Origin: an uncultured Anaerolineaceae bacterium
GTDB lineage: Bacteria > Chloroflexota > Anaerolineae > Anaerolineales > UBA4823
Direction: 5' to 3'
NCBI GenBank assembly: GCA_964484335.1
Contig: CAZAGA010000001.1
Coordinates: 4,640-40,553, forward strand
DNA length: 35,914 nucleotides
Part shown: in pieces, positions 1-19,847 of the stretch
Layout of the letters: each line of letters starts with the position of its first letter
Numbering within the stretch: the stretch's first letter is position 1
The notes under the pieces: generated by a model
Databases searched by the model: none
What the model was told of the DNA's origin: nothing
The model's input: only the letters and a program-made list of their open reading frames with translations
Translations under genes and position numbers: made by a program

Positions 1-460
1 CGCGCACATCCACCCAGGCCATCTTCTTGCTGCGATCGTCACCCGGCTCCATATACCTGGCCGATACCCTGGCCCGGACTTTCATCCTGGCCAGTAATTC
101 CTCGACCACAACTTTGCATATTTGTAGAACGTCATCTTGCAGATCTTCAGCGGTCGCTTCGACGCGAGCTTGCTCCTCGTATTCTTCGAGAAGCTCTTCT
201 TCTTCCCCCGTCGGTTCCAGATCAAATGTTTCTTCAATCCTGTCCGATTGGCCAGGTTTGGCTTGATCGTTCGCTTCTGAAAGAACTATCAGCCGGACAC
301 GCGCCTGGCGTGAGCCCAAGCCAAACAAACCACGGCTGCCTTGGTCCAATACTTCAATCTCAACCTGGTCTTCTGTCAGACCAAGCTCGGCCAGGCCATT
401 TTCAATCGCTTCCTCGATACTTGTCGCAATAACCTCTAAGTGAGTGCGTTTTTCATTCAT
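1..460 (-). CDS. khpB: Jag/KhpB-type RNA-binding protein, N-terminal part only (C-terminus lies beyond the left window edge)
   Basis: Absent from the ORF track because there is no stop inside the window. Reverse-complement reading from the ATG (cat at 458-460) gives MNEKRTHLEVIATSIEEAIENGLAELGLTEDQVEIEVLDQGSRGLFGLGSRQARVRLIV..., a typical Jag N-terminal domain. It starts 20 nt downstream of yidC, the conserved yidC-jag arrangement. Confidence 0.75.
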   Translation of the reverse strand, partial: MNEKRTHLEVIATSIEEAIENGLAELGLTEDQVEIEVLDQGSRGLFGLGSRQARVRLIVLSEANDQAKPGQSDRIEETFDLEPTGEEEELLEEYEEQARVEATAEDLQDDVLQICKVVVEELLARMKVRARVSARYMEPGDDRSKKMAWVDVR

Positions 461-480
461 ACCCGCCTCGTTCCCTTACC

Positions 481-1380
481 TTACTTAGCCGTCTTACCTT
501 TCGATGGCTTGGGCTTGCTAGATTTTCCAACCGGGGCCGTCTTCGGAGGCGCTTTCAAAGCTTTCTCCCCCGACAAGCTTGGGGTGGACGCCTTACTTTC
601 TACCGCTGGCGCTGACTTTTTACCCGGCAGAATATTGCTCCAATCAACCTTTCCCATCGCAGCGTACTGAACAATCGTCACGATGTTGCTGGTCACAAAA
701 TAGAGTGAGAGGCCAGCAGCAAAAGTCCAAGCCAGATAACCCATAAAGATCGGCATGTACAGGTTCATCATCTGGGTCATTTGGGCGCCTTGATCGCCTG
801 GCTGCGAGGGCGGCGTCATCAGCTTGGATTGCAGCCAGGTAGTTGCTACCACCACAATTGCCAGCAAAGGAATCCCATAACCAAGCACGTAGATCCGTTC
901 TGGCTGGCTGAGATCCATCCATAAGAACTGGTTGTCAATCGGAATGAGTTTCGAGATAGGGATGAGCTTGTCGAAGGGCGAGAACTGGTAAACGTGCTTG
1001 TACAGGTCCACCATCTGCATCGGCGCTCCGCCCAAGACGCGAATAACCGCCTGGTAGAGACCAATGATGATCGGGAACTGAACAAGGGTCGGCAGGCAGG
1101 AGCCCAATGGGTTGATCCCCATCTCCTGGTACATGCGCATCTGTTCCTGCTGCAGTTTTGCTTTGTCATCCTTGTATTTTTTCTGCAGCTCCTGGTAAGC
1201 CTTGCTGCGCTGCATTTCCTGCATCTTTTGGCCACTGCGAATCTGCTGGACAGATAGCGGGTGGGTGATCAAGCGAATCAGGATCGTAAATAAGATGATC
1301 GCCAGACCAAAGTTACCGACCACCCCATAGATCAGCAGCAGGATGTTAACCATCGGGTTAATAATCAGGGTATCCCACAT
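481..1380 (-). CDS. yidC: YidC/Oxa1-family membrane protein insertase, short form with Lys-rich C-terminal tail
   Basis: 299-aa ORF with multiple TM segments. Typical YidC core (ILFTILIRLITHPL, MQEMQ...MRMYQEMGINPLGSCLPTLVQFPIIIGLY) and a basic tail (KSSKPKPSKGKTAK). Synteny with rnpA/yidD/jag. Confidence 0.9.
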   Translation of the reverse strand: MWDTLIINPMVNILLLIYGVVGNFGLAIILFTILIRLITHPLSVQQIRSGQKMQEMQRSKAYQELQKKYKDDKAKLQQEQMRMYQEMGINPLGSCLPTLVQFPIIIGLYQAVIRVLGGAPMQMVDLYKHVYQFSPFDKLIPISKLIPIDNQFLWMDLSQPERIYVLGYGIPLLAIVVVATTWLQSKLMTPPSQPGDQGAQMTQMMNLYMPIFMGYLAWTFAAGLSLYFVTSNIVTIVQYAAMGKVDWSNILPGKKSAPAVESKASTPSLSGEKALKAPPKTAPVGKSSKPKPSKGKTAK

Positions 1381-1439
1381 GGTGCACTCTTTTTCAGTAC
1401 TGAACCAATATTTCTCGGATTAATCCATCGCGCCGGAGG

Positions 1440-2567
1440 TTATTTCGCCGGAACGAAAGGTTGCCATTTTAGCTCACCATTCGCGTCGATGGCGACCAGC
1501 AAATGCTGAGCCCCCATCAGCGAAAGGTAGATCGTCTCGCCGTCGGTATGGACAGGTGCATACAACTTCCCCAGAGTCGTCTTCCCATTTTCACTACCAA
1601 ACGGTTTCTGCAGGCTATTCCAACGGGTAGCGCCATTCTCAATATCCAGCGCATATAGAACGCCTGCCTTGACACCAAAGAAAACCGTATTACCGACCAC
1701 CGCCGCCTGGCCCGAAATTTCTGGGTCTTTATCGGCATGCGGTTCAGCCTGCCAGATCACACTACCAGAAGCTGCATCGATAGCGTAGAAAACGCCCTTT
1801 AGATTACCAACATACAGCCGGCCCTCGTGCAAGAGCGGCGAGGCATAGACCCAGCCCCAAACCGGGGTGCGCCAGAGGATCTCGCCATTGGTAGCCTTTA
1901 CAGCCAAAAGCTCATCGGCGTAAGTGCCAAAATATAGGACGCCATCCGGACTGAGCACCGGGGTACCTGAGATCGAGCCGCCTAGGTCTTCAGACTGCCA
2001 GACAACAGCGCCAGTTTCCGGGTCGAGGGCATACAGGAAATGATCCATCCCAGCCTGGAAGACCAGTTTGCCATCACTAACCGGGGCGCTCCACAAAGCG
2101 CTACCGGTTTTGAACTTCCAGGCCAGTACGCCTGAGCCGTCCAGCGCATACAGGTTGTGGTCGATGTTTGGCAGCAAGATCTTAGAACCGATGGATAGGC
2201 CAGAAGCATAAAAGTGATTGCCAGCCTGACTGAAAGTCCAATTGAGCTGGCCAGACGCTGCATCCAGGCTGTACACTTTATTATTGGTGCCACCTACAAC
2301 AAGCTGGCTGTCTCCCGTCAGGACTGAAGGAGCAGAAAAGAGCACATTACGCTCAGCCGGGTTGGGATAACGCCATTTTTCAGCACCGGTCTGCAGGTTA
2401 ATGGCATAGACATGGCTGCCGTTTGAAATGTAGCCGACCTGGTTTTCAGCATCAATGGTAAAACCCGGCCAGTTCTGCACCATAGCGCTGCCGCTGGCAC
2501 AGGCAGATAACACAAAAGCCAGGATCGTGAGGGTAAAAAGCAGGAAGAGCTGACGAGATTTATTCAT
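1440..2567 (-). CDS. PQQ-like 8-bladed beta-propeller lipoprotein (BamB-like fold family)
   Basis: Signal peptide plus lipobox (LAFVLSAC). Eight repeats of the pattern hYAhD..tG...W (VYAINLQTGAEKWRY, VYSLDAASGQLNWTF, LYALDGSGVLAWKF, LYALDPETGAVVWQS, LLAVKATNGEILWRT, FYAIDAASGSVIWQA, LYALDIENGATRWNS, LVAIDANGELKWQP). Confidence 0.8.
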   Translation of the reverse strand: MNKSRQLFLLFTLTILAFVLSACASGSAMVQNWPGFTIDAENQVGYISNGSHVYAINLQTGAEKWRYPNPAERNVLFSAPSVLTGDSQLVVGGTNNKVYSLDAASGQLNWTFSQAGNHFYASGLSIGSKILLPNIDHNLYALDGSGVLAWKFKTGSALWSAPVSDGKLVFQAGMDHFLYALDPETGAVVWQSEDLGGSISGTPVLSPDGVLYFGTYADELLAVKATNGEILWRTPVWGWVYASPLLHEGRLYVGNLKGVFYAIDAASGSVIWQAEPHADKDPEISGQAAVVGNTVFFGVKAGVLYALDIENGATRWNSLQKPFGSENGKTTLGKLYAPVHTDGETIYLSLMGAQHLLVAIDANGELKWQPFVPAK

Positions 2568-2582
2568 GGTCGTTTGTTCTGT

Positions 2583-2891
2583 TCATGGTACCGGGTCAAA
2601 ACCACCCGGGTTGAAAGGATTACAGCGCAGCACGCGCCAGACAGCCATCCAGCCGCCCTTTATCGCACCGTGCTTGTAAATCGCCTGGTATCCGTAGTGA
2701 GAGCAGGTCGGGGTATACCGGCAGGTATTGGGAGGCACCGCGCGGGAAAAAGTCGCCTGGTACAGGCGGATGAGTCCCAGTAAAACCCAGCGCGGGATAT
2801 TCCAGATGGTAAAGGGTAAATCGCGCAGTCTCGGCTCTTCGGGCGCATGGTAATCAGGCGGCACCGGTCGAGGGTGGGAATGCGAAGCCAT
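2583..2891 (-). CDS. yidD: Membrane protein insertion efficiency factor YidD
   Basis: [63 protein letters not shown] is the YidD signature. The ORF overlaps the rnpA 3' end by 38 nt. The exact start is uncertain. Confidence 0.85.
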
Positions 2892-3231
2892 AAGATTTAT
2901 CCAGTAAACCTGCCCGTTTGAGCAAACCGGTCATTGCAGATTGCAACTCGACAAACGGAGCGGCAAGAAGTGGTTCGCGAGCAATCCAAATCAAATCCCA
3001 ACCGGAGGGAAGCTGTGCCAGGTAGAGCTGCTGTGCAGCGCGCAAGCGGCGTTTGGCGTGATTGCGCTGAACCGCGCCGCCCAACGAGCGACCGGCCGTA
3101 ACGCCAAAGCGCGTACAACCCAGCTGGTTGGGATGCACCACCAGCACAACAAGCGGGTGGGCATAAGACTTTCCAAACCGCCGCACCCGCTTGAAATCGA
3201 TAGAACTGGTCAGGCAGAACCTGGATTTCAC
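2854..3231 (-). CDS. rnpA: Ribonuclease P protein component
   Basis: 125-aa basic protein ([20 protein letters not shown]...[22 protein letters not shown]) located immediately downstream of rpmH. Confidence 0.85.
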
Positions 3232-3255
3232 CTACTTGTTTCAACGCAACCTGGC

Positions 3256-3432
3256 TTAAGCGTTCCAGTTTACCTTTTTGACGTGATTGTTCTTGGTCAC
3301 CGTCAATTTGTAACGCCCTTTGGCCCGCCGGCGCTTTAATACCTCACGACCATCTGCAGTGGACATTCGGGAGCGAAAACCGTGGACGCGCACTCGGCGG
3401 CGAATCTTGGGTTGGTATGTACGTTTTGTCAT
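3256..3432 (-). CDS. rpmH: 50S ribosomal protein L34, with a short C-terminal extension
   Basis: Below the ORF-track size cut-off. Reverse complement from ATG (cat 3430-3432) reads [58 protein letters not shown], stop at 3256-3258. A Shine-Dalgarno-like aagga lies just upstream. Confidence 0.85.
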
Positions 3433-3477
3433 TCCTTACATCCTATTTTGATAATATCAGGGTACAGACGAAACGTG

Positions 3478-3483
3478 ATTATA
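3478..3483 (-). promoter_or_regulatory. Candidate -10 element (TATAAT on minus strand) for the rpmH operon
   Basis: Minus strand reads ...ttagggTATAATcacg..., about 45 nt upstream of the rpmH ATG. No convincing -35 element. Confidence 0.3.
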
Positions 3484-3490
3484 CCCTAAG

Positions 3491-3541
3491 AAAGAAAAAA
3501 TCGGGGAGGTTTTGACGATCCAGGTCGCCAAAACTTCCCCG
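3491..3541 (-). terminator. Intrinsic terminator downstream of folD
   Basis: The minus-strand RNA would read cggggaagttttg-(14 nt loop)-caaaacctccccg followed by auuuuuucuuu. The stem is 13 bp with one mismatch and starts 19 nt after the folD stop. Confidence 0.6.
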
Positions 3542-7820: not shown

Positions 7821-9356
7821 TCAGGGAAATAACCCCCGATCTTCAATCGGGGTGTATTCCTGCACCGCCTGTTTCAAAGGGGTTTCCAAGGGGCTGCCCA
7901 GGCGGACATACAAGTCGCCTGCTGCATCCGAGTAGATCAACACCCAGCCTGATTTAAGTTTCATCAAGTTATAAATCGGAGTATGATCATTAACTAAAAC
8001 CATATCAGTTGGGTAATCATCCAATAGCTGATCCCAGCGTCCCAATCCAAGCAGAAAGCCAAGATTCTTCTCGTATACTTCAGGCGAATAGACCGTCTCC
8101 CGGCGCCCATCCACTGATACTTTGATGCCTGGTCCAAGGTGCCAGATTACGTAGCCGCCCCAGTTATACTCGGTAGCGATATTCCCCTGCACCTGGCTAT
8201 TCTTGATGATCTGGACTGCCTGGACCGGGTACGGGGGTGATTGGCTAACCGTAATGTAGCCCAGGTTGGGAATCGCCAGCAGAAGAATTCCCAGGGCAGC
8301 AAATAGAGCCAGAAATGAGCCCCAGCGCGGGACACCCAGCGCCTGTCGGCGCATCCAACCGGAGCGCATCAGCAGGCTGGCAATATGCTCTCCTGCGACC
8401 ATCAATGCAAGGATCGCAAACAGGGAGAGATGGCGCTTGGCAACAAAGGGCATCAGGGCAGCGACACTCAGGAGCAGAACCATCACCGGCGAACGGTGTC
8501 GCTGAGAATAGATCAGGGCAACAATTGAGACCGCCAACAGAAACAGATACAGAATACCAAACGGGCTGGTGAGGGTTAGTGGAGCCCAGACCCAGATTTC
8601 TGGCCGGGCATCACTTGAGGAATGAAGCAGGTACTGGTAAAGCGATAATCCGTAAGGCGTCACAAGGGTTGCCAGCAAGCTTACCGCGGTTGGAAAAACA
8701 ATTTTCCGCCAGTCGAAGGACTGGATCACCAGGTGCATTACCACCCAGCCCAATAACAAAGCCACCCCAATTAGAAAGCCCCCATGCAAATTGGCCCATA
8801 GGAGAAAAATCGGTGGAGCAGCCCAGAGCAGCTTGAGGTTTCCTTCTTCAGCACGCAGCAATAAGGAAACGAACAGCGCCAACATCGGCAGGGTAAAAAT
8901 TTGCGGGTAAACCGTTGAAAAATCGGAGGCCAGCAGGATACTACCAATAAATAAGACCAATCCACCTGCCAGCAGGTCTACATGTTGGAGACGAAAGTTA
9001 TTAAGGATAATCCCAAGCGTAAGCAAGCCAAGCAGCAGTTTCAACAGCACCAACCCGATTACCTGGCCGATCCTCCAGGCCAACGCAAACAGGATTTGCG
9101 CCAGCCACTCGTGGTTGATCCAGCCCTGACCTCCGGTCAAGTAAGAATACGGATCGCTGCGGGCAATTGCTAAGCTGCTTAGATTATCCAACCCAGCCTT
9201 TAGATGACTCCAAAGGTCAATATTGGCAATCGTGCCAGAAAAAGTTAATAATGTCAGTGAAACCAGCAGCGCCATCAGACTGATCCTCCACAAGCCGGGA
9301 TCCTTCTTCCGGTCGTCCTGAGTTCTGCTGGCTGGGATTGCTGCATCGGTAGACAT
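7821..9356 (-). CDS. Polytopic integral membrane protein with C-terminal extracytoplasmic domain (possible GT-C-like glycosyltransferase or polymerase; function unknown)
   Basis: More than 10 predicted TM helices followed by a soluble C-terminus of about 130 aa. The track ORF begins at a TTG (9392). The ATG at 9356 (MSTDAAIP...) is preceded by TTGTAC-18-TATAAT-6 nt and has no Shine-Dalgarno, so I take 9356 as the start. Confidence 0.6.
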   Translation of the reverse strand: MSTDAAIPASRTQDDRKKDPGLWRISLMALLVSLTLLTFSGTIANIDLWSHLKAGLDNLSSLAIARSDPYSYLTGGQGWINHEWLAQILFALAWRIGQVIGLVLLKLLLGLLTLGIILNNFRLQHVDLLAGGLVLFIGSILLASDFSTVYPQIFTLPMLALFVSLLLRAEEGNLKLLWAAPPIFLLWANLHGGFLIGVALLLGWVVMHLVIQSFDWRKIVFPTAVSLLATLVTPYGLSLYQYLLHSSSDARPEIWVWAPLTLTSPFGILYLFLLAVSIVALIYSQRHRSPVMVLLLSVAALMPFVAKRHLSLFAILALMVAGEHIASLLMRSGWMRRQALGVPRWGSFLALFAALGILLLAIPNLGYITVSQSPPYPVQAVQIIKNSQVQGNIATEYNWGGYVIWHLGPGIKVSVDGRRETVYSPEVYEKNLGFLLGLGRWDQLLDDYPTDMVLVNDHTPIYNLMKLKSGWVLIYSDAAGDLYVRLGSPLETPLKQAVQEYTPIEDRGLFP

Positions 9357-9362
9357 AGCAAA

Positions 9363-9392
9363 ATTATAGCATTGCTTGGAATCTTGGTACAA
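9363..9392 (-). promoter_or_regulatory. Candidate promoter giving a leaderless transcript for the 7821-9356 gene
   Basis: Minus strand reads TTGTAC (9392-9387), an 18-nt spacer, TATAAT (9368-9363), then tttgct and ATG (9356). Confidence 0.4.
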
Positions 9393-9430: not shown

Positions 9431-9820
9431 ATGCGTTCACGGCTATTCCCAAAAATTCTCCTTGTCCTTATATTGGTTCTGCTTAGCGCTTGCGCAACGG
9501 AATCCGGCAGCGCCCCGGCGGCTATTGAAAGCTACCTGCAAGCCCTGGTGACCAAAAATGCCAGCCAGCTTGTGGCTGCCTCCTGTGCAGCATGGGAAGC
9601 CAGCGCTCGCCAGGAGTTGCGCACCTTTGATGCAGTAGAGGTTAGCCTGAACGAACTGGCCTGTCAAGTAGCTGATCAGAGCGGAGATACCGTTCGGGTT
9701 GCCTGCAGCGGCAGAATTACCGCCAATTATGGCAATGAAGTGCTTGAGATCAACCTGGCCGACCGCAGTTATACCGCTGTTAATGAAGCCGGCGAATGGC
9801 GGATGTGTGGATATCAATAA
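9431..9820 (+). CDS. Small secreted lipoprotein, unknown function
   Basis: 129 aa with lipobox VLLSAC. Cys-rich mature part and an aaaggaa Shine-Dalgarno upstream. It is the first gene co-directional with the acylation locus. Confidence 0.7.
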   Translation: MRSRLFPKILLVLILVLLSACATESGSAPAAIESYLQALVTKNASQLVAASCAAWEASARQELRTFDAVEVSLNELACQVADQSGDTVRVACSGRITANYGNEVLEINLADRSYTAVNEAGEWRMCGYQ

Positions 9821-9840: not shown

Positions 9841-9960
9841 ATGACTAGACCTTGGCTGAACCGTGAAAACCTGGCGGCACTTGTCTTTTGCCTGATCTTG
9901 ATCGCAATCGTCATCGCCAGCGCAGATCAATCCCCGCAGTGGATTTACCAAGGTTTTTAG
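9841..9960 (+). CDS. 39-aa single-TM microprotein with C-terminal WIYQGF motif (DltX-like acyl-shuttle candidate)
   Basis: Not in the ORF track (too short). ATG 9841 to TAG 9958-9960 gives MTRPWLNRENLAALVFCLILIAIVIASADQSPQWIYQGF, one hydrophobic helix plus a C-terminal aromatic-IY-x-x-F hexapeptide. Its stop codon abuts the GTG start of the MBOAT gene. No strong Shine-Dalgarno. Confidence 0.55.
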   Translation: MTRPWLNRENLAALVFCLILIAIVIASADQSPQWIYQGF

Positions 9961-11394
9961 GTGACTCTGCTACCTGCCCTGGTATTCCCACTGGGCGCTG
10001 TACTGATTGCCTGGTTGCTACCTGCTCGGATGCGGCTGGGAGCAATTGTAGTCGCCGGTCTATTAGCAGTTTTCTGGCTGCAGCCCGCCCTTCCAATTCG
10101 CAGCCTGGATTATTGGCTGCCGACTGCCAGCCTTATCCTCACCATTATCGTCTGGACCACAACCCAGCCAACCATCCTGGAAACCGCAGACCAACGGAAA
10201 AGCTTGCTACAGGCCGGCGGCTTGATCGGCGGATCACTCCTGCTGCTCAGTCTGACCCGCTATCTGGACGGAGTGTGCTGTCTGAGCGCATCACGCCCTC
10301 CCCAGCTTGGGCAAGTCTTCTTATTTGTAACTGCTGGCCTTGCCCTGGCTGCCTTGCCTCTCTTGCTCCCCCGCCACAGACGTCTGTTTTCACTAGCGGC
10401 AGTTGGCATTATCCTGGCGCTCTTCCTGGTCTTAAAAAGTCCAGCCTTATTGCAGGCCGCCAGCCATGCATTGCGTGGCCTGACCGGCCAGCCGGTTGAA
10501 CTGGCCAGTCCGCAGGACCTCAGCTGGATTGGCTTTTCCTTCATCGCTTTCCGGCTGTTACACGCTTTACTGGACTTTCGCGCGGGCCGATTGCCTGCTT
10601 ACCGGCTTGATCAGTTTGCCGCATACGTCCTGTTTTTTCCCAGCTTGGCAGCCGGACCAATCGATCGCTCGCAGCATTTCATTGGCGAGCTAATCAATCC
10701 TAAAAGCTCACCAGCCGCCAACCTGTCGACCGGCTTGGAACGGATTGTGTGGGGATTATTTAAAAAGTTCGTCCTGGCAGATAGTTTTGCACTGGCCGCT
10801 CTGAACAGTCAAAACGCGGCCCAAGCAGAATCAACCCTGTGGACCTGGCTGCTGGTTTATGCGTATGCTTTGCGAATCTACTTCGATTTTTCAGCCTACA
10901 CAGACCTGGCATTGGGGACAGGAAAAATCCTTGGCCTCAATCTGCCAGAGAACTTTGACCGGCCTTACCTGAAGCAGAACCTGACTGCCTTCTGGAATAG
11001 CTGGCATATCACCCTGGCGCAGTGGTTCCGGGCTTACTTTTTTAATCCACTGACGCGCGCCCTGCGCTCGCGGGCCCGACCGATGCCAGGATGGAGCATT
11101 ATCCTGTTGGCCCAGATCAGCACCATGTTGCTGATCGGACTATGGCATGGGATTAATTGGAATTTTGCTATCTGGGGCGCCTGGCATGGACTGGGATTGT
11201 TTATCCATAACCGCTGGAGTGAATGGAGCCGGTCACGCCTGGGCTTTCTTGAAACCCATTCGAGTTGGAAACGCGTTGCCCGTGGAGCTGGCTGGTTACT
11301 CACCTTCCAATATGTCACCCTGGGATGGGTCTGGTTTGCTCTGCCATCTGTCCAGCTCTCCAGCCGGGTGTTTCAAAAATTAGCTGGGTTTTAG
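9961..11394 (+). CDS. MBOAT-family membrane-bound O-acyltransferase (DltB/AlgI-like)
   Basis: 477 aa, polytopic. Contains the hallmark blocks RIYFDFSAYTDLALGTGKILGLNLPENFDRPY and FWNSWHITLAQWFRAYFFNPL, the latter carrying the conserved catalytic His. Confidence 0.9.
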   Translation: MTLLPALVFPLGAVLIAWLLPARMRLGAIVVAGLLAVFWLQPALPIRSLDYWLPTASLILTIIVWTTTQPTILETADQRKSLLQAGGLIGGSLLLLSLTRYLDGVCCLSASRPPQLGQVFLFVTAGLALAALPLLLPRHRRLFSLAAVGIILALFLVLKSPALLQAASHALRGLTGQPVELASPQDLSWIGFSFIAFRLLHALLDFRAGRLPAYRLDQFAAYVLFFPSLAAGPIDRSQHFIGELINPKSSPAANLSTGLERIVWGLFKKFVLADSFALAALNSQNAAQAESTLWTWLLVYAYALRIYFDFSAYTDLALGTGKILGLNLPENFDRPYLKQNLTAFWNSWHITLAQWFRAYFFNPLTRALRSRARPMPGWSIILLAQISTMLLIGLWHGINWNFAIWGAWHGLGLFIHNRWSEWSRSRLGFLETHSSWKRVARGAGWLLTFQYVTLGWVWFALPSVQLSSRVFQKLAGF

Positions 11395-11396
11395 AA

Positions 11397-12560
11397 ATGT
11401 ATCAACCTTCAACACTTCCGAAGAAGGAGACTTTCTCAGCCATCCATGTGGCCTGGAAAGGGTTGCTGTTATTTATCCTGGTCAATCTGGCATTTGCCGC
11501 CGTTTACCCGATGCAAGCACTGGGGCGGATTTCTGCGTATAACACCCTGCTGCCTGGCCGGCCGCGACTGCCATACGGCGACAATCCTGAGCGATCCAAT
11601 AGCCTTAGCCTGTTCAACCTGGAAGCAATGTTCGCATCGCATGAGCTGGCTGGCCAGGCCGAGAAGCCAGATGGTGAGTACCGGATTATTTTTATCGGCG
11701 ACTCGGCCACTTGGGGCTTCCTGCTACCAGCAAAGGAAACCCTGACCGCGCAGATCAATAACTCAGGAGCCCACCTGCCCGATGGTCGGATTATCCGTGC
11801 CTATAACTTCGGCTATCCGGTGATGTCACTGACCAAGGATCTGCTGATCCTGACTTATGCCATGCGCTACCAGCCGGATCTGGTGGTTTGGCCAGTAACG
11901 CTTGAGTCGTTCCCAGATGACAAACAGCTCTTTCCCCCGCTACTGAAAAATAATCCTGAGCCAGTCTTCGCGTTGATCGAACGCTATCAGCTCGGTTTAG
12001 ACCCGGCATCTGCTCACCTGGTCGAACTTGGCCTGTTGGAGCGGACAATTTTTGGGGCGCGCCGGGAGCTGGCCGATCTCTTCCGCTTGCAAATGCTGGG
12101 CATCCCCTGGGCCGCGACCGGCATTGACCAGGATATTCCGGAAAGTTTCATCGCTCGCCAGGAAGATCTTTCCGCGGATCTGACTTTCCATGACTTTGAA
12201 CCTGGCCAACTCGACCCGCAAGCACTGGCATTTACAGCGCTTGAGGCCGGGATCGCGATAGCCGGAGATATCCCCGTGCTACTGGTCAACGAGCCAATGT
12301 TCATCAGCCAAGGAGCCAACAGCGATCGGCGCTATAATTATTACTATCCTCGCTGGGCTTATGATGATTATCGACGCTTAATGGTTGAGCTAAGCGCCCA
12401 GCAGGATTGGCTATATCGGGACTATTGGGACCTGGTACCAGGCAACGAGTTCACCAACAGCGCTGTTCATATGAGCCCGGCCGGAACAGCTCTTTTTGCG
12501 GAACGGTTGCTACAAGATATCCTGGAAATCAACCAACCGATTACTAGACCCGATCTATAG
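11397..12560 (+). CDS. N-terminally membrane-anchored SGNH/GDSL-type acyl-transferase/esterase (DltD-like role)
   Basis: The ATG at 11397 lies 2 nt after the MBOAT stop; the track's upstream extension overlaps the MBOAT in another frame. TM helix LLLFILVNLAFAAVY, Block I IIFIGDSATWG and a C-terminal His block NSAVHMSPAGTALFAERL. Its 388 aa is similar in size and topology to DltD. Confidence 0.75.
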   Translation: MYQPSTLPKKETFSAIHVAWKGLLLFILVNLAFAAVYPMQALGRISAYNTLLPGRPRLPYGDNPERSNSLSLFNLEAMFASHELAGQAEKPDGEYRIIFIGDSATWGFLLPAKETLTAQINNSGAHLPDGRIIRAYNFGYPVMSLTKDLLILTYAMRYQPDLVVWPVTLESFPDDKQLFPPLLKNNPEPVFALIERYQLGLDPASAHLVELGLLERTIFGARRELADLFRLQMLGIPWAATGIDQDIPESFIARQEDLSADLTFHDFEPGQLDPQALAFTALEAGIAIAGDIPVLLVNEPMFISQGANSDRRYNYYYPRWAYDDYRRLMVELSAQQDWLYRDYWDLVPGNEFTNSAVHMSPAGTALFAERLLQDILEINQPITRPDL

Positions 12561-12575
12561 CCGGGCTGGTTAAGA

Positions 12576-12581
12576 TATAAT
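12576..12581 (+). promoter_or_regulatory. Candidate internal -10 element (taaGATATAATccg) 7 nt upstream of the ATG at 12589 (leaderless candidate)
   Basis: TATAAT at 12576-12581 and ATG at 12589-12591, with no Shine-Dalgarno between them. The same GATATAAT octamer recurs in three other intergenic regions. Confidence 0.35.
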
Positions 12582-12588
12582 CCGCTTG

Positions 12589-13584
12589 ATGAAATCCCTG
12601 TCCTTGTCCTTCTTGATCCTGCTATTTTGCCTGACTGCTTGCGGCGGGAGCGAGCCGGCGAGCACGGCCTCACCAACGAACCCGTCTCCGGTCGGAGAAC
12701 CAACTGCACTGACCAGAGCAACTGCCGGCCCATCCCAGGCTCAATTCATCCCCACCGCCCCAGAACCTACCAAAGGAATTGTCGAACCCACCGCCGCCCC
12801 CCCTACTCTACCCGCCCCGACAGCCACCTTACGCCCGACGCTGAGTCCAGAAGACTGGAAAAATTTGCCCGTCATCCCCGAGATCAGCTCAACTGTGATT
12901 CAAATCTACCAGCACGGTGTGTCCCTGGGAAATAATCCACGCGCCTTTTCAAAAATCGGCGACTGCGGCAGTACCCCGGCCTGGTTCCTGGGAGACTTCG
13001 ATCGCGGTCCTAAATATTACAACCTGGGGCAGTACACCAATCTGGAACAGGTTATTGGAGTCTTTCAGGGCTCGTACAGCCGGACGAGCCTGGCTGCCAA
13101 GTCCGGTTTTAATGCTTCCTCGATCTTCTCGCCCTTGTGGTCTGACCCCAAGCAATGCCAACCTGGTGAGGCGCCGCTGGCATGCGAATACCGGGTCCAT
13201 CGTCCCAGCATGGCCTTCATCATGCTGGGCTCGAACGACGTTTACCATCCGGATGAATTTGAACCCCAGATGCGCCAGATTATCGAGCTGTCGATCGGTC
13301 AGGGGATTATTCCAATCCTATCCACCAAAGCTGATAACCTGGAAGGAGACGGCAGCATTAACGCCGCCATTGCCCGGCTGGCACAGGAGTACGACATCCC
13401 ACTGTGGAATTACTGGCGGGCGGTTCAGGATCTGCCAGATCAAGGACTGCAAGAAGACAACGTCCATATCACCTGGGCGTCAAACCAGTTCGATAATCCC
13501 TTCAATATGAGCCGGGGTTGGCCAATTCGCAACCTGAATGCGCTGCAGGTCTTGGATGCCATCTGGTTGGCGGTGTCACAATAA
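12589..13584 (+). CDS. Secreted SGNH-like lipoprotein with Pro/Thr-rich linker and a GDC variant of Block I
   Basis: Lipobox LFCLTAC and a PT-rich linker of about 70 aa. The catalytic-domain blocks are KIGDCGSTPAWFLG (Block I with Cys where Ser is expected), AFIMLGSNDV (Block III GxND) and EDNVHIT (Block V DxxH). Confidence 0.7.
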   Translation: MKSLSLSFLILLFCLTACGGSEPASTASPTNPSPVGEPTALTRATAGPSQAQFIPTAPEPTKGIVEPTAAPPTLPAPTATLRPTLSPEDWKNLPVIPEISSTVIQIYQHGVSLGNNPRAFSKIGDCGSTPAWFLGDFDRGPKYYNLGQYTNLEQVIGVFQGSYSRTSLAAKSGFNASSIFSPLWSDPKQCQPGEAPLACEYRVHRPSMAFIMLGSNDVYHPDEFEPQMRQIIELSIGQGIIPILSTKADNLEGDGSINAAIARLAQEYDIPLWNYWRAVQDLPDQGLQEDNVHITWASNQFDNPFNMSRGWPIRNLNALQVLDAIWLAVSQ

Positions 13585-13638
13585 AGTTAGCTGCCTGAAC
13601 CGACCCCAGGTTTTCTTGAATAACTAACGAGAGCCCAA

Positions 13639-13887
13639 ATGAACCCAACCATTGCTGAACCACTGGCCCAATATATAGCCGAGAAAATCCTTAAGCTGCC
13701 CAAGCGGAAGATTCAGCCGGATGAGCCACTGCTCTCTGGAGGACTGATTGACTCTTTCTACCTAGTTGACCTGGCTCTGTTCGTTGAGGATGTTTTTGGA
13801 GTGCGAATCGATGATACCGAGCTCAACAAAGACAGCTTTGACACCCTGGCGCAATTGAGCAAGCTGATCGAGCAACGCCAGAGATAG
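13639..13887 (+). CDS. Acyl/peptidyl carrier protein (phosphopantetheine-binding)
   Basis: 82 aa and acidic, with GGLIDSFYLVDLALFVE containing the DS attachment serine. The size and helix pattern are those of ACP/DltC-type carriers. Confidence 0.85.
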   Translation: MNPTIAEPLAQYIAEKILKLPKRKIQPDEPLLSGGLIDSFYLVDLALFVEDVFGVRIDDTELNKDSFDTLAQLSKLIEQRQR

Positions 13888-13907
13888 CGCCAACGAAAAA
13901 CTATCCG

Positions 13908-15614
13908 GTGACTGTCAATAGCAACCTTGCCCATACCCTTCTGCGCCTGGCACAGGAAAAACCTGAACAGGCGGCGGTTCGCCTGCTGTTTGCTCAGGCG
14001 CCCGAGGTGAGCTTGAGCTATCAGGAGCTGTGGGCACGCTCTGGAGCCTATGCGCAGGCCATGGCGCAGGCTGGTGTTACCCCTGGCGAGATCGTCATTC
14101 TTATTATGCAACACGGCCCGGACCTGGTGGCAGCATTTTTTGGCGCCTTGCTCCAGGGAGCAATTCCCTCGATCATGCCTTTCCTGACTGAAAAACTGCT
14201 CCCCGACCATTACCGACGCTCACTAGAAGCTTTATTCGAAATCACCCTCCCGGGTGGCGTCATCACCTACCCAGAATTCCTGGCTGAAATCCAAACGGCA
14301 GCCAGCCAGGCCAGCTCGATAAAGGCTATCCTGGTTTCGGATAAAATCCCGCCCGCCTACGACTTGAATCCCGACCATTTTCCAGGGCTGCAGCGCGGCC
14401 CTGATGAGATTGCTCTGTTACAACATTCTTCGGGTACCACGGGCCTACAGAAAGGCGTGGCGCTTTCACACCAGGCGATCCAGAATCAGATATCCAGTTA
14501 TGCGAATGCACTGCATTTGAGCAAAGAAGATGTTGTGGTGAGCTGGCTACCGCTATACCATGACATGGGACTGATCGCTGGCTTTATTCTGCCCATCCTG
14601 AGTGGGTTGCGTCTGGTGTTGCTTTCGCCTTTTGATTGGGTGCGCGCCCCGCAGAAACTGCTGCATGCAATCAGCGCCTACCAAGGCAGCCTATGCTGGC
14701 TGCCAAACTTTGCCTACAACTTCTGTGCACAAAAAATTCGGGCGCGTGACCTGGAAGGGGTCAACCTTTCCAGCCTGCGGGCAGTGATCAACTGCTCAGA
14801 GCCGATGTCGTGGAAGAGCCAGCAGATGTTCCTGGAGCGCTTCCAGCCGTATGGGCTACGCCCGGAGGCGCTGGCAACCTGCTATGCAATGGCTGAGAAC
14901 GTCTTTGCAGTAACACAAGGCGGGATTGACACACCCGTTTTAGTCGATGTGATCGACGCCGCTGCCTTTTCCCAGCGCCATACCGCCAGGCCGGTTAAGC
15001 AGGCTGTTCCATTGGATGCGCCTGGGTCGCTCAAGATGCTCTCGGCTGGACGACCGATCGCGAATACCCAGGTTCGGGTAATCGGAAAACATGGCCAGGA
15101 TCTTCCCGAACGACAAGTCGGCGAGATTGTCCTACAGAGCAATTGCATGTTGACCAGTTACTACCATCGCCCCGATTTAACCCAAGAGACTTTCATCGAT
15201 GGCTGGTATCTAACTGGCGACCTGGGTTACCTGGCGAATGGAGAACTATATGTCACCGGCCGAAAAAAGGATTTGATCATCGTCGGTGGAAAAAACGTTT
15301 ACCCGGCTGATATTGAACGGCTGGCCAGCGAAGTCAAGGGAGTCCATCCCGGCCGTGTAGTGGCCTTTGGGGTGTATGATGAACAGCAAGGCACGGAAGA
15401 AGTAGCCCTGGTAGTTGAGCTAGAACAATTCGAGCAATTAAATGAAGTGGAGCAGGAGCAGATTCAACTCCAAATCCGGCAACATGTAAGCCAGGGGTCG
15501 GATGTCGTTGTTAGGAGGATACAAGTAGTAGGAAAAAACTGGCTGCAAAAAACCAGCAGCGGTAAGATCGCTCGCAGCGCTAATCGAGAGAAATACCTGG
15601 CTGAAATTACTTAA
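13908..15614 (+). CDS. AMP-forming adenylating enzyme, fatty-acyl-AMP ligase (FAAL)-like
   Basis: 568 aa with a GTG start. Motifs: LLQHSSGTTGLQKGVALSH (AMP-binding core), WLPLYHDMGL, NLSSLRAVINCSEPMS, GDLGYLANGELYVTGRKKDLIIVGGKNVYPADIE and SSGKIAR. The overall pattern resembles FAAL/acyl-ACP ligases more than DltA. Confidence 0.88.
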   Translation: MTVNSNLAHTLLRLAQEKPEQAAVRLLFAQAPEVSLSYQELWARSGAYAQAMAQAGVTPGEIVILIMQHGPDLVAAFFGALLQGAIPSIMPFLTEKLLPDHYRRSLEALFEITLPGGVITYPEFLAEIQTAASQASSIKAILVSDKIPPAYDLNPDHFPGLQRGPDEIALLQHSSGTTGLQKGVALSHQAIQNQISSYANALHLSKEDVVVSWLPLYHDMGLIAGFILPILSGLRLVLLSPFDWVRAPQKLLHAISAYQGSLCWLPNFAYNFCAQKIRARDLEGVNLSSLRAVINCSEPMSWKSQQMFLERFQPYGLRPEALATCYAMAENVFAVTQGGIDTPVLVDVIDAAAFSQRHTARPVKQAVPLDAPGSLKMLSAGRPIANTQVRVIGKHGQDLPERQVGEIVLQSNCMLTSYYHRPDLTQETFIDGWYLTGDLGYLANGELYVTGRKKDLIIVGGKNVYPADIERLASEVKGVHPGRVVAFGVYDEQQGTEEVALVVELEQFEQLNEVEQEQIQLQIRQHVSQGSDVVVRRIQVVGKNWLQKTSSGKIARSANREKYLAEIT

Positions 15615-17868
15615 CCCGCGGGCGCCAGGCCGGATCGAAATCGAAACTTGCATCGTTGGTCAAGTCTCGCCGCGAAGCGCCATTGCTGGTCATAATGGTT
15701 ATCTCGTGGTTTTCCCCGGTTGGCCAGCTCTCAAACACGAGCCAGATGCCATCTGGAGAAAATTGAGCTTCGCGCATCGGCACCGGCCCCAGCAATAATG
15801 GAAATTCAATTTGCTCCTGAGTTTTTTCGAGGTTCACCGCAATCAAGGTTGGCGGCTTGCCCTGCAATGGATAACGGGTAAATAAGATCGACTTGCCATC
15901 CGGCGACCATGCCGGGTGGACATCTGAAGCTGCTTTTGGCTCTTCCAGAAGTGGGGTGCGGTTACCTTGGGTATCCAAAATCATTATTCGTCCCAGGGTT
16001 TGTTCTTCCACATATACCAACCGGGATCCATCTGGTGACCAAGCTGGATTGTAACTCCGGATGAATAACGGCGTCACCACACGAACTGACTTGTCAGCCA
16101 TTTCCATGATAAATATCCGTGGGCTAGCAGTGTCGCGTTCCGAGGTAAAGGCGATCTTTGTACCATCGGGCGACCACGCCGGGTCATAATCGCCGCCATA
16201 AGTGGTAGGAAGCGGGATGACTTCGATCTGCTCAACGTCAACATCTGGGATCAAGAATAAGGCTGAACCAGAATAGGATTCCTTATTCCGTTCACAAGGT
16301 GAGACGAAAACCAACTGTCTGCCATCCGGTGCCCAGGCTGGCTGGCAAGCACCTTCGGGGATATTGGTCAACTGGCGTGGCTGTGTCCCTTCCGTGGTCA
16401 TCAACCAAATTTGTGGGAAGCGAGTTCCACGCGCGGCAGCAAAGGCAATCTGTCCACCGCTGTCGCCCATCGCGGTAGGCATAGGCGTGAGAGTTGGTGT
16501 TGGCGTAGATGTCGATGTACTGGTGGCGGTTGCAGTTGAGGTGGGAGAGCTCGTCGGGGTTAGCGAGGGAGTCAGGGTAGCCATCAAGGTTGGTGCGAGG
16601 GTCAGCGTTGGGGTCTGGCTGCCCTGTGGCAAGGGGGCAACAACCGCTTGCGTTGCATCGGGCGTGGCTGGGCTGGGCGTTAAGTTATCTGCCTCAAACG
16701 GTGGGATCAGGTTGAAGTTCTCAAAGATCTTGATCAGGGCGCTTTTTGAGATCGTCGGGTTGATCGTATAAAAACTAACCGCAAACACAGTGATCGCTAC
16801 AACAAACAGGGAAAGGAGCCAAAAACGGAGCAGATTTTCACGCCGTTTCTTAGCTATGACAGCCGGCTTTTCGACAGGCAGCAGGCCTTGCATGATCAAC
16901 TGTGGGGCCGGCTGCCCAGCCGGGCGAGGAAGCTTGGCGGACACATCCGGTGGTACCAGGGCATGATCGCCGGGCAATGGTTTATCTGCCACTCCAGGCG
17001 GAGGCGCAACTACGTATTCATCCAAATTCCGCTGGGAGGGCGTACCCGAATTTAATAAGGCTTGCTTGAAATCTTCTGCTGTCTGATAACGCCCATCTGG
17101 CCGGATGTCCAGCGAGCGCTCGATCACCGATGCCAAGCGGCGTGAGACCCGGCTATTATGCCGGCGAACGGGCGTCAGATCGACGTGATCGACCGCCCGG
17201 CTCAAAGCATCCTCGGGGATCATCCCAGTCAGGGCAGCGTAAAGGGTTGCGCCAAGCGAATAAATATCAGAGCGCTGATCCGTGCGGGCTGAACCATATT
17301 GTTCTGGAGGTGAGTAACCGGGGGTCATCGCCCGAGCTCCGGTCGTGGTCGTCTGGTGGGTTTTCAGGTCTTTGGCCAGCCCAAAATCGACCAGGTAGAT
17401 ATGACCCTGGGGCGTGATCCGGACATTACCAGGCTTGATATCCCGGTGAACCACCGGCGGATTGCAGGAGGCCAGATAAGAGAGTGCATCGCAGATCGCA
17501 GCGCCAATAATAATGACTTCATCATCCCCCAAAATACCGACCCGGTCCATCCGCTGACGGAGATCTTCCCCCTCAATATAATCCATCACCAGGTATTGGC
17601 CCTGTCCGTCGATCACAAAGTGATCGGTTACACGCGGCAGGTTCGGGTGGCGCAGCGTCGCCAGCAAGACAGCTTCACGGCGAAACTGGCGCGCATAATC
17701 GTCGGTCGTAAACAGGTTATCCTTGACCGCTACTTCCACACCCAGGTTTTCGTCAATCGCCTTATAAACCGACCCCATTCCCCCCTGGCCAAGGATTTCG
17801 ACGATCCGGTAGCGATTATTGAGCAGCGCACCTCGTTCGAGTAACAAATGATAGCATCCGTCTTGCAA
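15607..17868 (-). CDS. Hanks-type Ser/Thr protein kinase with TM segment, Thr/Pro/Ser linker and C-terminal TolB-like (PD40) beta-propeller
   Basis: GQGGMGSVYKA, VAVKD, VVHRDIKPGNV, DFGLA and SPPEQ, then a TM helix (FWLLSLFVVAITVFAVSFY). A low-complexity TPT/STS linker follows. The C-terminal part has repeated D/PAWSPDG blades (PAWAPDGRQLVF, PAWSPDGTKIAF, PAWSPDGSRLVY, PAWSPDGKSILF, FSPDGIWLVF). TTG start, exact start uncertain. The 3' end overlaps the convergent FAAL gene by 8 nt. Confidence 0.85.
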   Translation of the reverse strand: MQDGCYHLLLERGALLNNRYRIVEILGQGGMGSVYKAIDENLGVEVAVKDNLFTTDDYARQFRREAVLLATLRHPNLPRVTDHFVIDGQGQYLVMDYIEGEDLRQRMDRVGILGDDEVIIIGAAICDALSYLASCNPPVVHRDIKPGNVRITPQGHIYLVDFGLAKDLKTHQTTTTGARAMTPGYSPPEQYGSARTDQRSDIYSLGATLYAALTGMIPEDALSRAVDHVDLTPVRRHNSRVSRRLASVIERSLDIRPDGRYQTAEDFKQALLNSGTPSQRNLDEYVVAPPPGVADKPLPGDHALVPPDVSAKLPRPAGQPAPQLIMQGLLPVEKPAVIAKKRRENLLRFWLLSLFVVAITVFAVSFYTINPTISKSALIKIFENFNLIPPFEADNLTPSPATPDATQAVVAPLPQGSQTPTLTLAPTLMATLTPSLTPTSSPTSTATATSTSTSTPTPTLTPMPTAMGDSGGQIAFAAARGTRFPQIWLMTTEGTQPRQLTNIPEGACQPAWAPDGRQLVFVSPCERNKESYSGSALFLIPDVDVEQIEVIPLPTTYGGDYDPAWSPDGTKIAFTSERDTASPRIFIMEMADKSVRVVTPLFIRSYNPAWSPDGSRLVYVEEQTLGRIMILDTQGNRTPLLEEPKAASDVHPAWSPDGKSILFTRYPLQGKPPTLIAVNLEKTQEQIEFPLLLGPVPMREAQFSPDGIWLVFESWPTGENHEITIMTSNGASRRDLTNDASFDFDPAWRPRVK

Positions 17869-17903: not shown

Positions 17904-19847
<1,944 letters not shown>

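Follow-up and report, generated by a model that had tools for sequence, protein, structure and literature searches.

A seven-gene locus of Anaerolineae that looks like a Dlt machinery rebuilt around a fatty-acid-type activating enzyme

How would a bacterium from a phylum that is not known to make teichoic acids come to carry the parts of the Dlt pathway, and what would these parts do? The question is raised by a block of genes on the + strand of a 35,914-nucleotide (nt) stretch of DNA, hereafter the window, whose positions serve as coordinates throughout. The source names of close homologues and a genome scan identify the host as an Anaerolineales bacterium of the phylum Chloroflexota, in keeping with the initial annotation of this DNA, which had noted that the host does not look like a Firmicute with teichoic acids. 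The locus looks like a seven-gene operon that is conserved in Anaerolineae and that resembles the D-alanylation (Dlt) machinery of Gram-positive bacteria rebuilt around a fatty-acid-type activating enzyme. We favor, with moderate confidence, a model in which the operon encodes a Dlt-type transmembrane relay for a different acyl group, which would pass from a fatty acyl-AMP ligase (FAAL) to a carrier protein, from there to an MBOAT acyltransferase and the tyrosine of a microprotein, and finally through an SGNH protein to an acceptor in the envelope. The individual steps are inferred from the anatomy of the locus, whose genes are as follows (aa, amino acids).

9431-9820, + strand: lipoprotein of 129 aa with a signal peptide and lipobox Cys21; heads the block
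9841-9960, + strand: DltX-like microprotein of 39 aa with one hydrophobic helix and the C-terminal sequence WIYQGF
9961-11394, + strand: MBOAT acyltransferase of 477 aa with DltB-type architecture (PF03062; H349, H396)
11397-12560, + strand: membrane-anchored protein of 387 aa with a predicted SGNH fold, in the position of DltD (Ser103 in a GDS block, His358)
12589-13584, + strand: second SGNH-fold protein, a lipoprotein of 331 aa (G-D-C with Cys126; D290-x-x-H293)
13639-13887, + strand: stand-alone carrier protein of 82 aa (PP-binding; putative phosphopantetheine site Ser39 in GGLIDSF)
13908-15614, + strand: FAAL-type adenylating enzyme of 568 aa with a GTG start (AMP-binding; FAAL insertion)

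The initial annotation had described the last six of these genes and had overlooked the first, the conserved lipoprotein gene. Each of the six was recovered as an open reading frame (ORF) on the + strand, and gene calls made independently on identical public contigs yield the same products of 477, 387, 331, 82 and 568 aa. The tight packing that it reported holds as well: the TAG stop codon of the microprotein gene (9958-9960) immediately precedes the GTG start of the MBOAT gene (9961), and the intergenic gaps that follow the MBOAT gene are, in order, 2, 28, 54 and 20 nt. The motifs that it had listed are likewise present, namely WIYQGF in the microprotein, the YFDFSAYTDLALG and FWNSWHITLAQWF blocks in the MBOAT, GDSATWG in the anchored SGNH protein and the DS serine (IDS) in the carrier.

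The microprotein and the gene block around it

The smallest gene of the block has a C-terminus that hardly changes among its relatives. P-x-W-I-Y-Q-G-F-stop is found in 78 of 78 sequences (77 relatives and the window), with a single A-for-G and a single Y-for-F exception, while the codons that specify this tail vary freely, with four proline, three isoleucine, two tyrosine, four glycine and two phenylalanine codons and all three stops in use; the N-terminal region is variable. That the tail is kept through free synonymous variation shows that the gene is translated and that purifying selection on it is strong. The microproteins are typically 38-44 aa long. A brief N-terminal stretch is followed by a single hydrophobic helix, and the short tail beyond it, placed extracytoplasmically, ends in aromatic-x-Y-x-x-F. 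Their gene lies directly before the MBOAT gene in related loci, usually within about 100 nt. In the Dlt system the FXYXXF sequence has been called an "acyl shuttle", whose tyrosine takes the acyl group from DltB and hands it to DltD (PMC12148441). Reference DltX proteins end in FIYNEF, so that the window's WIYQGF amounts to a tryptophan replacing the first phenylalanine, and Tyr36 is the presumed acyl acceptor. The initial description of the microprotein as DltX-like was therefore well founded in its tail motif.

This gene is unannotated. It is uncalled on the public contigs (L001-L003), the exact sequence of its product is absent from a collection of 15 billion proteins, and the product has no match in Pfam. 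Two apparent natural fusions of microprotein and MBOAT (L016 and L034) were rejected as artefacts: one contains a run of N and the other a one-base frameshift, which at 9839-10000 of L034 makes WIYQGF read as NGFIRGF, seemingly fused to the MBOAT. Single-base frameshifts occur in genes of this cluster in several long-read metagenome-assembled genomes (L026, L030, L034 and L045), where they mimic fusion or gene loss and are not biology.

The microprotein belongs to a block that recurs widely. Scanning the GTDB species genomes with an MBOAT profile returned 356 relatives, and the best 80 of these 356 loci, which were the ones examined, all come from Chloroflexota, mostly Anaerolineae. Searches of these loci with the window proteins (tblastn) gave a recurrent order of lipoprotein, microprotein, MBOAT, DltD-like protein, second SGNH protein, carrier and FAAL, and this block, which recurs in about 80 Chloroflexota species genomes, stands far beyond chance. 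The microprotein was found in all 77 loci with room for it, the lipoprotein lies directly upstream of it in 68 of these 77, and the DltD-like gene adjoins the MBOAT gene on its downstream side in essentially all loci. Among the 56 GTDB species loci with at least 6.5 kb of downstream sequence, carrier and FAAL genes both lie beside the core in 42. They stay with the core where the gene for the second SGNH protein is absent or has moved (L054, L057, L073 and L055), and they are also attached to it in loci outside the kinase/gyrB context that surrounds the operon in the window. In four divergent loci (L104-L107), whose flanks are unrelated to those of the window, the order runs lipoprotein, microprotein (WIYQGF), MBOAT, (DUF3048), a fusion of the DltD-like and second SGNH proteins, carrier and AMP-binding enzyme. 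The carrier and FAAL genes are thus co-conserved with the core, as the initial annotation would have it, despite rearrangement, gene fusion and changed surroundings.

The cultured Leptolinea sp. HRD-7 (AP024711.1; L084, L097, L098 and L099) carries all the parts on a 212-kb replicon, at four sites. A 709-aa tandem version of the second SGNH protein lies next to the carrier (29.4-31.8 kb), and the MBOAT has kept its place beside the lipoprotein and a microprotein of 47 aa that ends in WIYQGF (183.8-185.7 kb). The genes for the DltD-like protein (61.6 kb) and the FAAL (148.8 kb) occupy the other two sites. In a plasmid collection the DltD-like and second SGNH proteins matched only Leptolinea, and the distant MBOATs that we inspected there belong to cis-type systems (shuttle motif fused to the MBOAT; see below) with no carrier or FAAL gene nearby. 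Other genes are inserted into the cluster in L027, L055, L083 and further loci. They encode extra GDSL paralogues and xylose-isomerase-like TIM barrels or are broken, and we set them aside as uninformative about the acyl group.

The lipoprotein that heads the block has an invariant set of cysteines, comprising the lipobox C21 together with C52, C78, C92 and C126. Its Pfam matches, to DUF4440/SnoaL_3, are all sub-threshold and it found no match among PDB sequences; from its sequence the fold is possibly NTF2-like. Its position recalls that of AlgF upstream of AlgI-type MBOATs.

The activating enzyme and its carrier protein

Which acyl group could such a block handle? The adenylase offers the most direct clue, as by sequence it is clearly FAAL-type and not DltA-type, a distinction that the initial annotation had already drawn. 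It matches AMP-binding at E=1.1e-52. Its best NCBIfam models are those of FAAL and long-chain fatty-acid ligase subfamilies, at 334-357 bits, which is below their cut-offs of 572-600. Its matches in the PDB include the L. pneumophila FAAL (3kxw, 4e-69), the E. coli FAAL (3pbk, 3.7e-60) and FadD32 (about 1e-54), with McyG as the second-best match. It shares with the L. pneumophila enzyme an insertion of about 27 residues and the sequence LPLYHDMGL, whereas DltA has no such insertion and reads APFSFDLSV at this point; the FSFDLSV of DltA is the position of the amino-group-binding aspartate in A-domain motif A4. The similarity to four DltA proteins (21-25% identity, E 2e-16 to 1e-5) is generic. 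An alpha-amino acid is unlikely to be the activated acid because the adenylase is FAAL-type, and the acyl group probably comes from a fatty acid or from some other acid that is not an amino acid. Fatty acids are what this clade uses by default, yet FAAL-clade relatives such as McyG can take other acids, which tells against a firm assignment.

The carrier, too, was correctly recognized at the outset as a carrier protein with an attachment serine. It matches PP-binding at 25.9 bits, above the cut-off of 20.8, and its GG-x-I-D-S core is conserved in 55 sequences. In the PDB it matched type II carrier proteins, DltC among them (4e-4). It shares 25% identity with S. aureus DltC (E=2.8e-4) and falls short of both DltC equivalog cut-offs, with 26.4 bits against 68 (NF003464) and 22.4 against 52.35 (TIGR01688).

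These data bear on the simplest reading of the locus, that it is a true Dlt pathway moving D-alanine or another amino acid, with an adenylase that has diverged. The parts list and the tyrosine microprotein fit Dlt, and the sole specific NCBIfam match of the MBOAT is LTA_dltB (TIGR04091), at 212.7 bits against a cut-off of 375. However, the adenylase carries the FAAL insertion and reads YHDMGL in place of the FSFDLSV of DltA, it matches FAALs at 4e-69 and DltA at 2e-16 or weaker, none of the proteins reaches the equivalog cut-off of a Dlt family, and teichoic acids are not known from Chloroflexota. We regard a true Dlt pathway as very improbable. The initial claim that the genes match the Dlt parts list thus stands for architecture; the proteins are analogues, not members, of the DltA, DltB, DltC, DltD and DltX families.

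The MBOAT, the two SGNH proteins and their neighbors

The protein that would have to accept an acyl group from the carrier is the MBOAT. Its match to PF03062 (E=1.6e-20; 74.1 bits, cut-off 27) places it in the superfamily. Its only PDB sequence matches are to DltB (1.2e-57), and its identity to five reference DltB proteins is 24-27%. His289 and His336 are the active residues of DltB from S. thermophilus (PMC11035591); H349 (in FWNSWH) and H396 (in GLWHG) align with them and are invariant in 24 relatives. For comparison we used six non-Dlt MBOATs from plasmids of Bacteroides, Deinococcus, Paludibaculum, Pseudomonas, Methylomonas and Skermanella, whose genes adjoin SGNH, AlgF or glycosyltransferase genes and no carrier gene. 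MBOATs of the PatA/AlgI type carry a C-terminal extension of two helices that ends in FxYxxF, whereas the DltB type is served by a shuttle motif in trans (PMC12148441). All six comparison proteins end in F[IL]Y[FW]xF, a fused shuttle motif, and are therefore called cis-type here, while the Anaerolineae MBOATs end about 60-70 residues earlier with no tyrosine motif (the window protein closes with ...VFQKLAGF). The two groups also differ where a carrier would dock. DltC docks on DltB at the horizontal helix HC, Met302-Lys312, and at Arg317 (PMC11035591). In the Anaerolineae MBOATs this segment has the length seen in DltB, whereas in six of six cis-type proteins it is 7 residues shorter and contains an LGGNR block that is not found in the Anaerolineae MBOAT. 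The contact residues themselves differ, with T, R and R in place of V305, I306 and M309, and Arg366 and Arg369 are invariant. By sequence the MBOAT is a clade of its own, DltB-like in architecture but not a DltB family member or orthologue.

Several observations weigh against our model, and many of them speak for an alternative in which an ordinary MBOAT-SGNH system of the PatA/PatB or AlgI/J/X type O-acetylates its target from acetyl-CoA or acyl-CoA, with the shuttle motif placed on the microprotein and the carrier and FAAL serving another pathway. A neighbor-joining bootstrap tree separates Anaerolineae MBOATs, DltB and cis-type proteins into three clades, each at 100%, and the MBOAT thus lies outside the acetyl-CoA-type clade; a tree of three groups without an outgroup, however, cannot name the sister pair. 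Cross-scoring with hidden Markov models (HMMs) was used because the tree left this relation unresolved, and it places the MBOAT somewhat nearer to the cis type: the Anaerolineae MBOATs reach 196-230 bits on a small cis-type (AlgI/PatA-like) HMM and 150-188 on a DltB HMM, and their mean identity is 28% to cis-type proteins and 24% to DltB. Linkage is also imperfect. Of the 56 loci counted above, six have only the carrier and eight neither gene beside the core, so that FAAL is not adjacent in 14, and one of the eight (L066) has a carrier match about 8 kb upstream. Synteny alone is weak evidence for linkage because the kinase gene and gyrB downstream of the operon are syntenic in about half of the loci. 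In a divergent sister subfamily (L102, 2380-5850; L103, 6561-10031) the same MBOAT type stands beside a 676-aa DltD-like protein, which is extended at its N-terminus by about 310 aa that include several hydrophobic segments and beta-rich units in repeat, and no tyrosine-motif ORF, carrier or FAAL was found within 13 kb. Finally, two SGNH modules and a small periplasmic accessory protein recall AlgJ, AlgX and AlgF, and in Deinococcus AlgF precedes a cis-type MBOAT.

Set against this, the carrier and FAAL genes track the core through rearrangements, fusions and different flanks, the carrier is kept even at loci missing FAAL, and we found no polyketide synthase (PKS), nonribosomal peptide synthetase (NRPS) or lipid-synthesis gene nearby that could use the carrier. 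The MBOAT, moreover, has the longer, DltB-type docking segment with its two invariant arginines and not the LGGNR block. We therefore consider O-acetylation from a coenzyme A donor unlikely, and continue to favor a relay fed by the carrier.

The remaining points against our model concern homology and catalytic residues. The microprotein found no NCBIfam match even at E up to 10, and hhalign comparison with four DltX proteins gave probabilities of 0.3-4.6%; its relation to DltX is one of architecture and motif, not of demonstrable homology. The anchored protein in the position of DltD has no match in Pfam or NCBIfam, and hhalign gave a probability of 0.8% against four DltD proteins. Its DxxH block lacks the aspartate and reads T-N-S-A-x-H. 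A 35-sequence profile of this protein also failed to find a match among PDB sequences. The profile searches suggested by the initial annotation thus succeeded for MBOAT, PP-binding and AMP-binding, whereas DltD gave none and Lipase_GDSL_2 stayed below its cut-off.

What suggests that the DltD-like protein is an anchored SGNH protein, as first proposed, is its predicted structure. The AlphaFold2 model (mean predicted local distance difference test score, pLDDT, 83.5) has an N-terminal helix at residues 15-36 followed by an alpha/beta domain, for which Foldseek returned the SGNH fold, with TesA and carbohydrate esterases at about 2e-4. DltD structures (6pfx, 3bma and 7dxm) are among the top matches, over the full length and at E 2-5e-4, though with TM-scores of only 0.40-0.42; fold comparison alone links the protein to DltD, and weakly. 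Ser103 in the GDS block never varies, nor does His358, and Asp102 is nearly invariant. Searched against 1.84 billion representatives, its profile delineates a compact family of 280 clusters at E<=1e-30 and 1226 at E<=1e-3, some distant members of which pass the GDSL_2 cut-off.

Besides its lipoprotein anchor, the second SGNH protein has a linker rich in Pro and Thr and a catalytic domain that spans about 245 aa. It scores 26.7 bits on Lipase_GDSL_2, under the cut-off of 32.9, which many of its relatives exceed, and its AlphaFold2 model (mean pLDDT 89.3) matches TesA and GDSL lipases in Foldseek. The initial annotation was right about the fold and the lipoprotein anchor but had not seen that the nucleophile position holds a cysteine in place of the serine of SGNH/GDSL enzymes. 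Block I reads G-D-C, and Cys126 is invariant there in 30 of 30 and 35 of 35 relatives, while D290-x-x-H293 preserves the DxxH block. C190 and C199 are also invariant and probably form a disulfide, which would leave C126 free, and the protein may be a thiol-type SGNH enzyme; a literature search of an incomplete text collection returned no relevant paper on Cys-type SGNH enzymes. In loci L104-L107 the DltD-like protein is fused to the Cys-SGNH domain (P0363, P0364 and P0381), from which it follows that the two SGNH modules act together. In L100, a divergent locus from the representative search, it is fused instead to a CE4 polysaccharide deacetylase (P0366), and genes for the carrier, an AMP-binding enzyme, an NAD epimerase and a GT2 glycosyltransferase follow. 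This fusion and its neighbors hint at a glycan acceptor.

The nature of the acceptor is where a further reading departs from ours. The relay could run as proposed and end on a membrane lipid, a lipoglycan or a secreted protein, in which case it would serve lipid remodelling or protein lipidation. Eukaryotic MBOATs lipidate secreted proteins, the window is without teichoic-acid or glycan-synthesis genes, and the closest structural matches of both SGNH proteins include the thioesterase/lysophospholipase TesA, octanoate-bound forms among them. The CE4 fusion beside an epimerase and GT2 gene in one lineage speaks against such an acceptor, as does the fact that the characterised bacterial MBOAT-SGNH pairs all modify glycopolymers (PMC12148441). 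A lipid or protein acceptor strikes us as a distinctly outside prospect.

To the left of the operon, a divergent gene on the - strand (7821-9392) encodes a polytopic membrane protein (523 aa as an ORF, 484 aa on the public contigs) that has no Pfam or NCBIfam match and keeps this position only in the three closest species. To its right, a - strand gene (15607-17868) runs towards the FAAL gene and shares 8 nt with the 3' end of the latter; it encodes a Ser/Thr protein kinase whose linker is rich in Thr, Pro and Ser and whose ectodomain is a beta-propeller of the PD40/Tricorn type. Next comes gyrB (17904-19823), 2 kb downstream of the operon. At the left end of the window (1-3500), as seen on an identical contig, lie genes for Jag, YidC, YidD and ribosomal protein L34, which together with gyrB make up an origin-proximal gene set; GC skew shows no switch within the window. 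The kinase gene and gyrB keep company with the cluster as described above. Scans of the window for tRNAs and Rfam families gave no match, and a scan for promoters and terminators gave no signal above shuffled expectation.

The proposed relay and its relation to known systems

How the parts might work together can be laid out as a sequence of steps. The scenario that we envision begins with the FAAL-type enzyme, which would activate a carboxylic acid by adenylation, most likely a fatty acid or another that is not an alpha-amino acid, and load it as a thioester onto the phosphopantetheine arm of the carrier at Ser39. The acyl-carrier would then dock at the cytoplasmic horizontal-helix segment of the MBOAT, which, through His396 and His349, would pass the acyl group via its tunnel to Tyr36 of the microprotein at the outer face of the membrane. 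The acyl-tyrosine ester would then be attacked by Ser103 of the anchored SGNH protein. The final transfer, made by this protein, would be to an acceptor outside the cytoplasm, probably a glycopolymer of the wall or surface. The Cys-type SGNH lipoprotein may join in: it could be a second transferase, as in the AlgJ/AlgX pair, or an esterase with an editing role, and the 129-aa lipoprotein would be an accessory factor. A narrower version of this scenario, which we put forward only tentatively and think possible, is that the Anaerolineae MBOAT carries a fatty acyl group from its acyl-carrier via the tyrosine microprotein to a pair of SGNH proteins, one of them with a cysteine nucleophile, and so lipidates a glycopolymer or surface protein.

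If the relay operates as we propose, it would add to what is known of envelope acylation in several ways. The established donors for acylation by bacterial MBOAT-SGNH systems are acetyl-CoA and D-alanyl-DltC, and a FAAL-loaded carrier would be a third. The DltX tyrosine shuttle has so far been described only for Dlt operons, and this locus would extend it to the Chloroflexota, a deep-branching phylum whose envelope chemistry is poorly known. For enzymology the locus offers an unannotated microprotein gene with an invariant C-terminus and an SGNH family in which cysteine occupies the place of the nucleophile. Filamentous Anaerolineae are abundant in sludge, sediments and soils, and if the acyl group is a fatty acid, its transfer could explain properties of their surface hydrophobicity or sheaths; the fatty-acylation reading, if true, would also provide a prokaryotic counterpart to the lipidation of Hedgehog, Wnt and ghrelin. 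Since all parts are present in the cultured Leptolinea sp. HRD-7, the question is open to experiment and this strain is a possible model. Full-text searches of an incomplete text collection returned no description of an MBOAT fed by FAAL and carrier or of dlt-like loci in Chloroflexi.

Among known systems the locus can first be compared with Dlt. Both combine an adenylase with a small carrier, an MBOAT that lacks a fused tail, a separate single-pass microprotein ending in aromatic-x-Y-x-x-F and an extracytoplasmic SGNH protein anchored at its N-terminus, all in one operon, and both share the two MBOAT histidines and the length of the DltC-docking segment. They differ in gene order, which here is lipoprotein-X-B-D-SGNH2-C-A, in the FAAL-type adenylase and in that no protein reaches a Dlt family cut-off. 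The DltD-like protein is without detectable sequence homology to DltD, and the locus has an extra Cys-type SGNH lipoprotein, an extra small lipoprotein and a Chloroflexota host.

The acetyl-CoA-dependent systems PatA/PatB (peptidoglycan), AlgI/J/F/X (alginate) and WssF-I (cellulose) share with the locus the pairing of MBOAT and SGNH protein and the acyl-tyrosine motif, and the overall sequence of the MBOAT is slightly closer to this group. The alginate system also resembles it in having two SGNH-like modules and a small extracytoplasmic accessory protein, and AlgJ/AlgX provide a precedent for the second SGNH module. Unlike the locus, these systems carry FxYxxF on two extra C-terminal helices of the MBOAT (six of six examples), have the LGGNR block, which the Anaerolineae MBOAT lacks, and do without carrier or adenylase. 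The eukaryotic protein-lipidating MBOATs HHAT, PORCN and GOAT, which belong to the same Pfam family, would offer a parallel should the acyl group be a fatty acid, since they too transfer fatty acyl groups to an extracytoplasmic or luminal acceptor; they use acyl-CoA as donor, however, and acylate proteins directly, with no tyrosine microprotein or SGNH relay.

The last comparison is with loading modules of FAAL and stand-alone carrier protein, such as those with the FAALs of L. pneumophila and E. coli and the mycobacterial FadD32 and FadD28. The adenylase shares with these the insertion, YHDMGL and similarity over its full length (4e-69 to 1e-54), and its gene adjoins that of the carrier. Known FAAL-carrier pairs feed cytoplasmic PKSs, NRPSs or lipid synthases, whereas the sole plausible partner in this operon is a transmembrane MBOAT. 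Altogether, as judged from its sequences, the locus follows the logic of DltXABCD, equals the alginate system in its number of modules, and is formally a member of no Dlt family.

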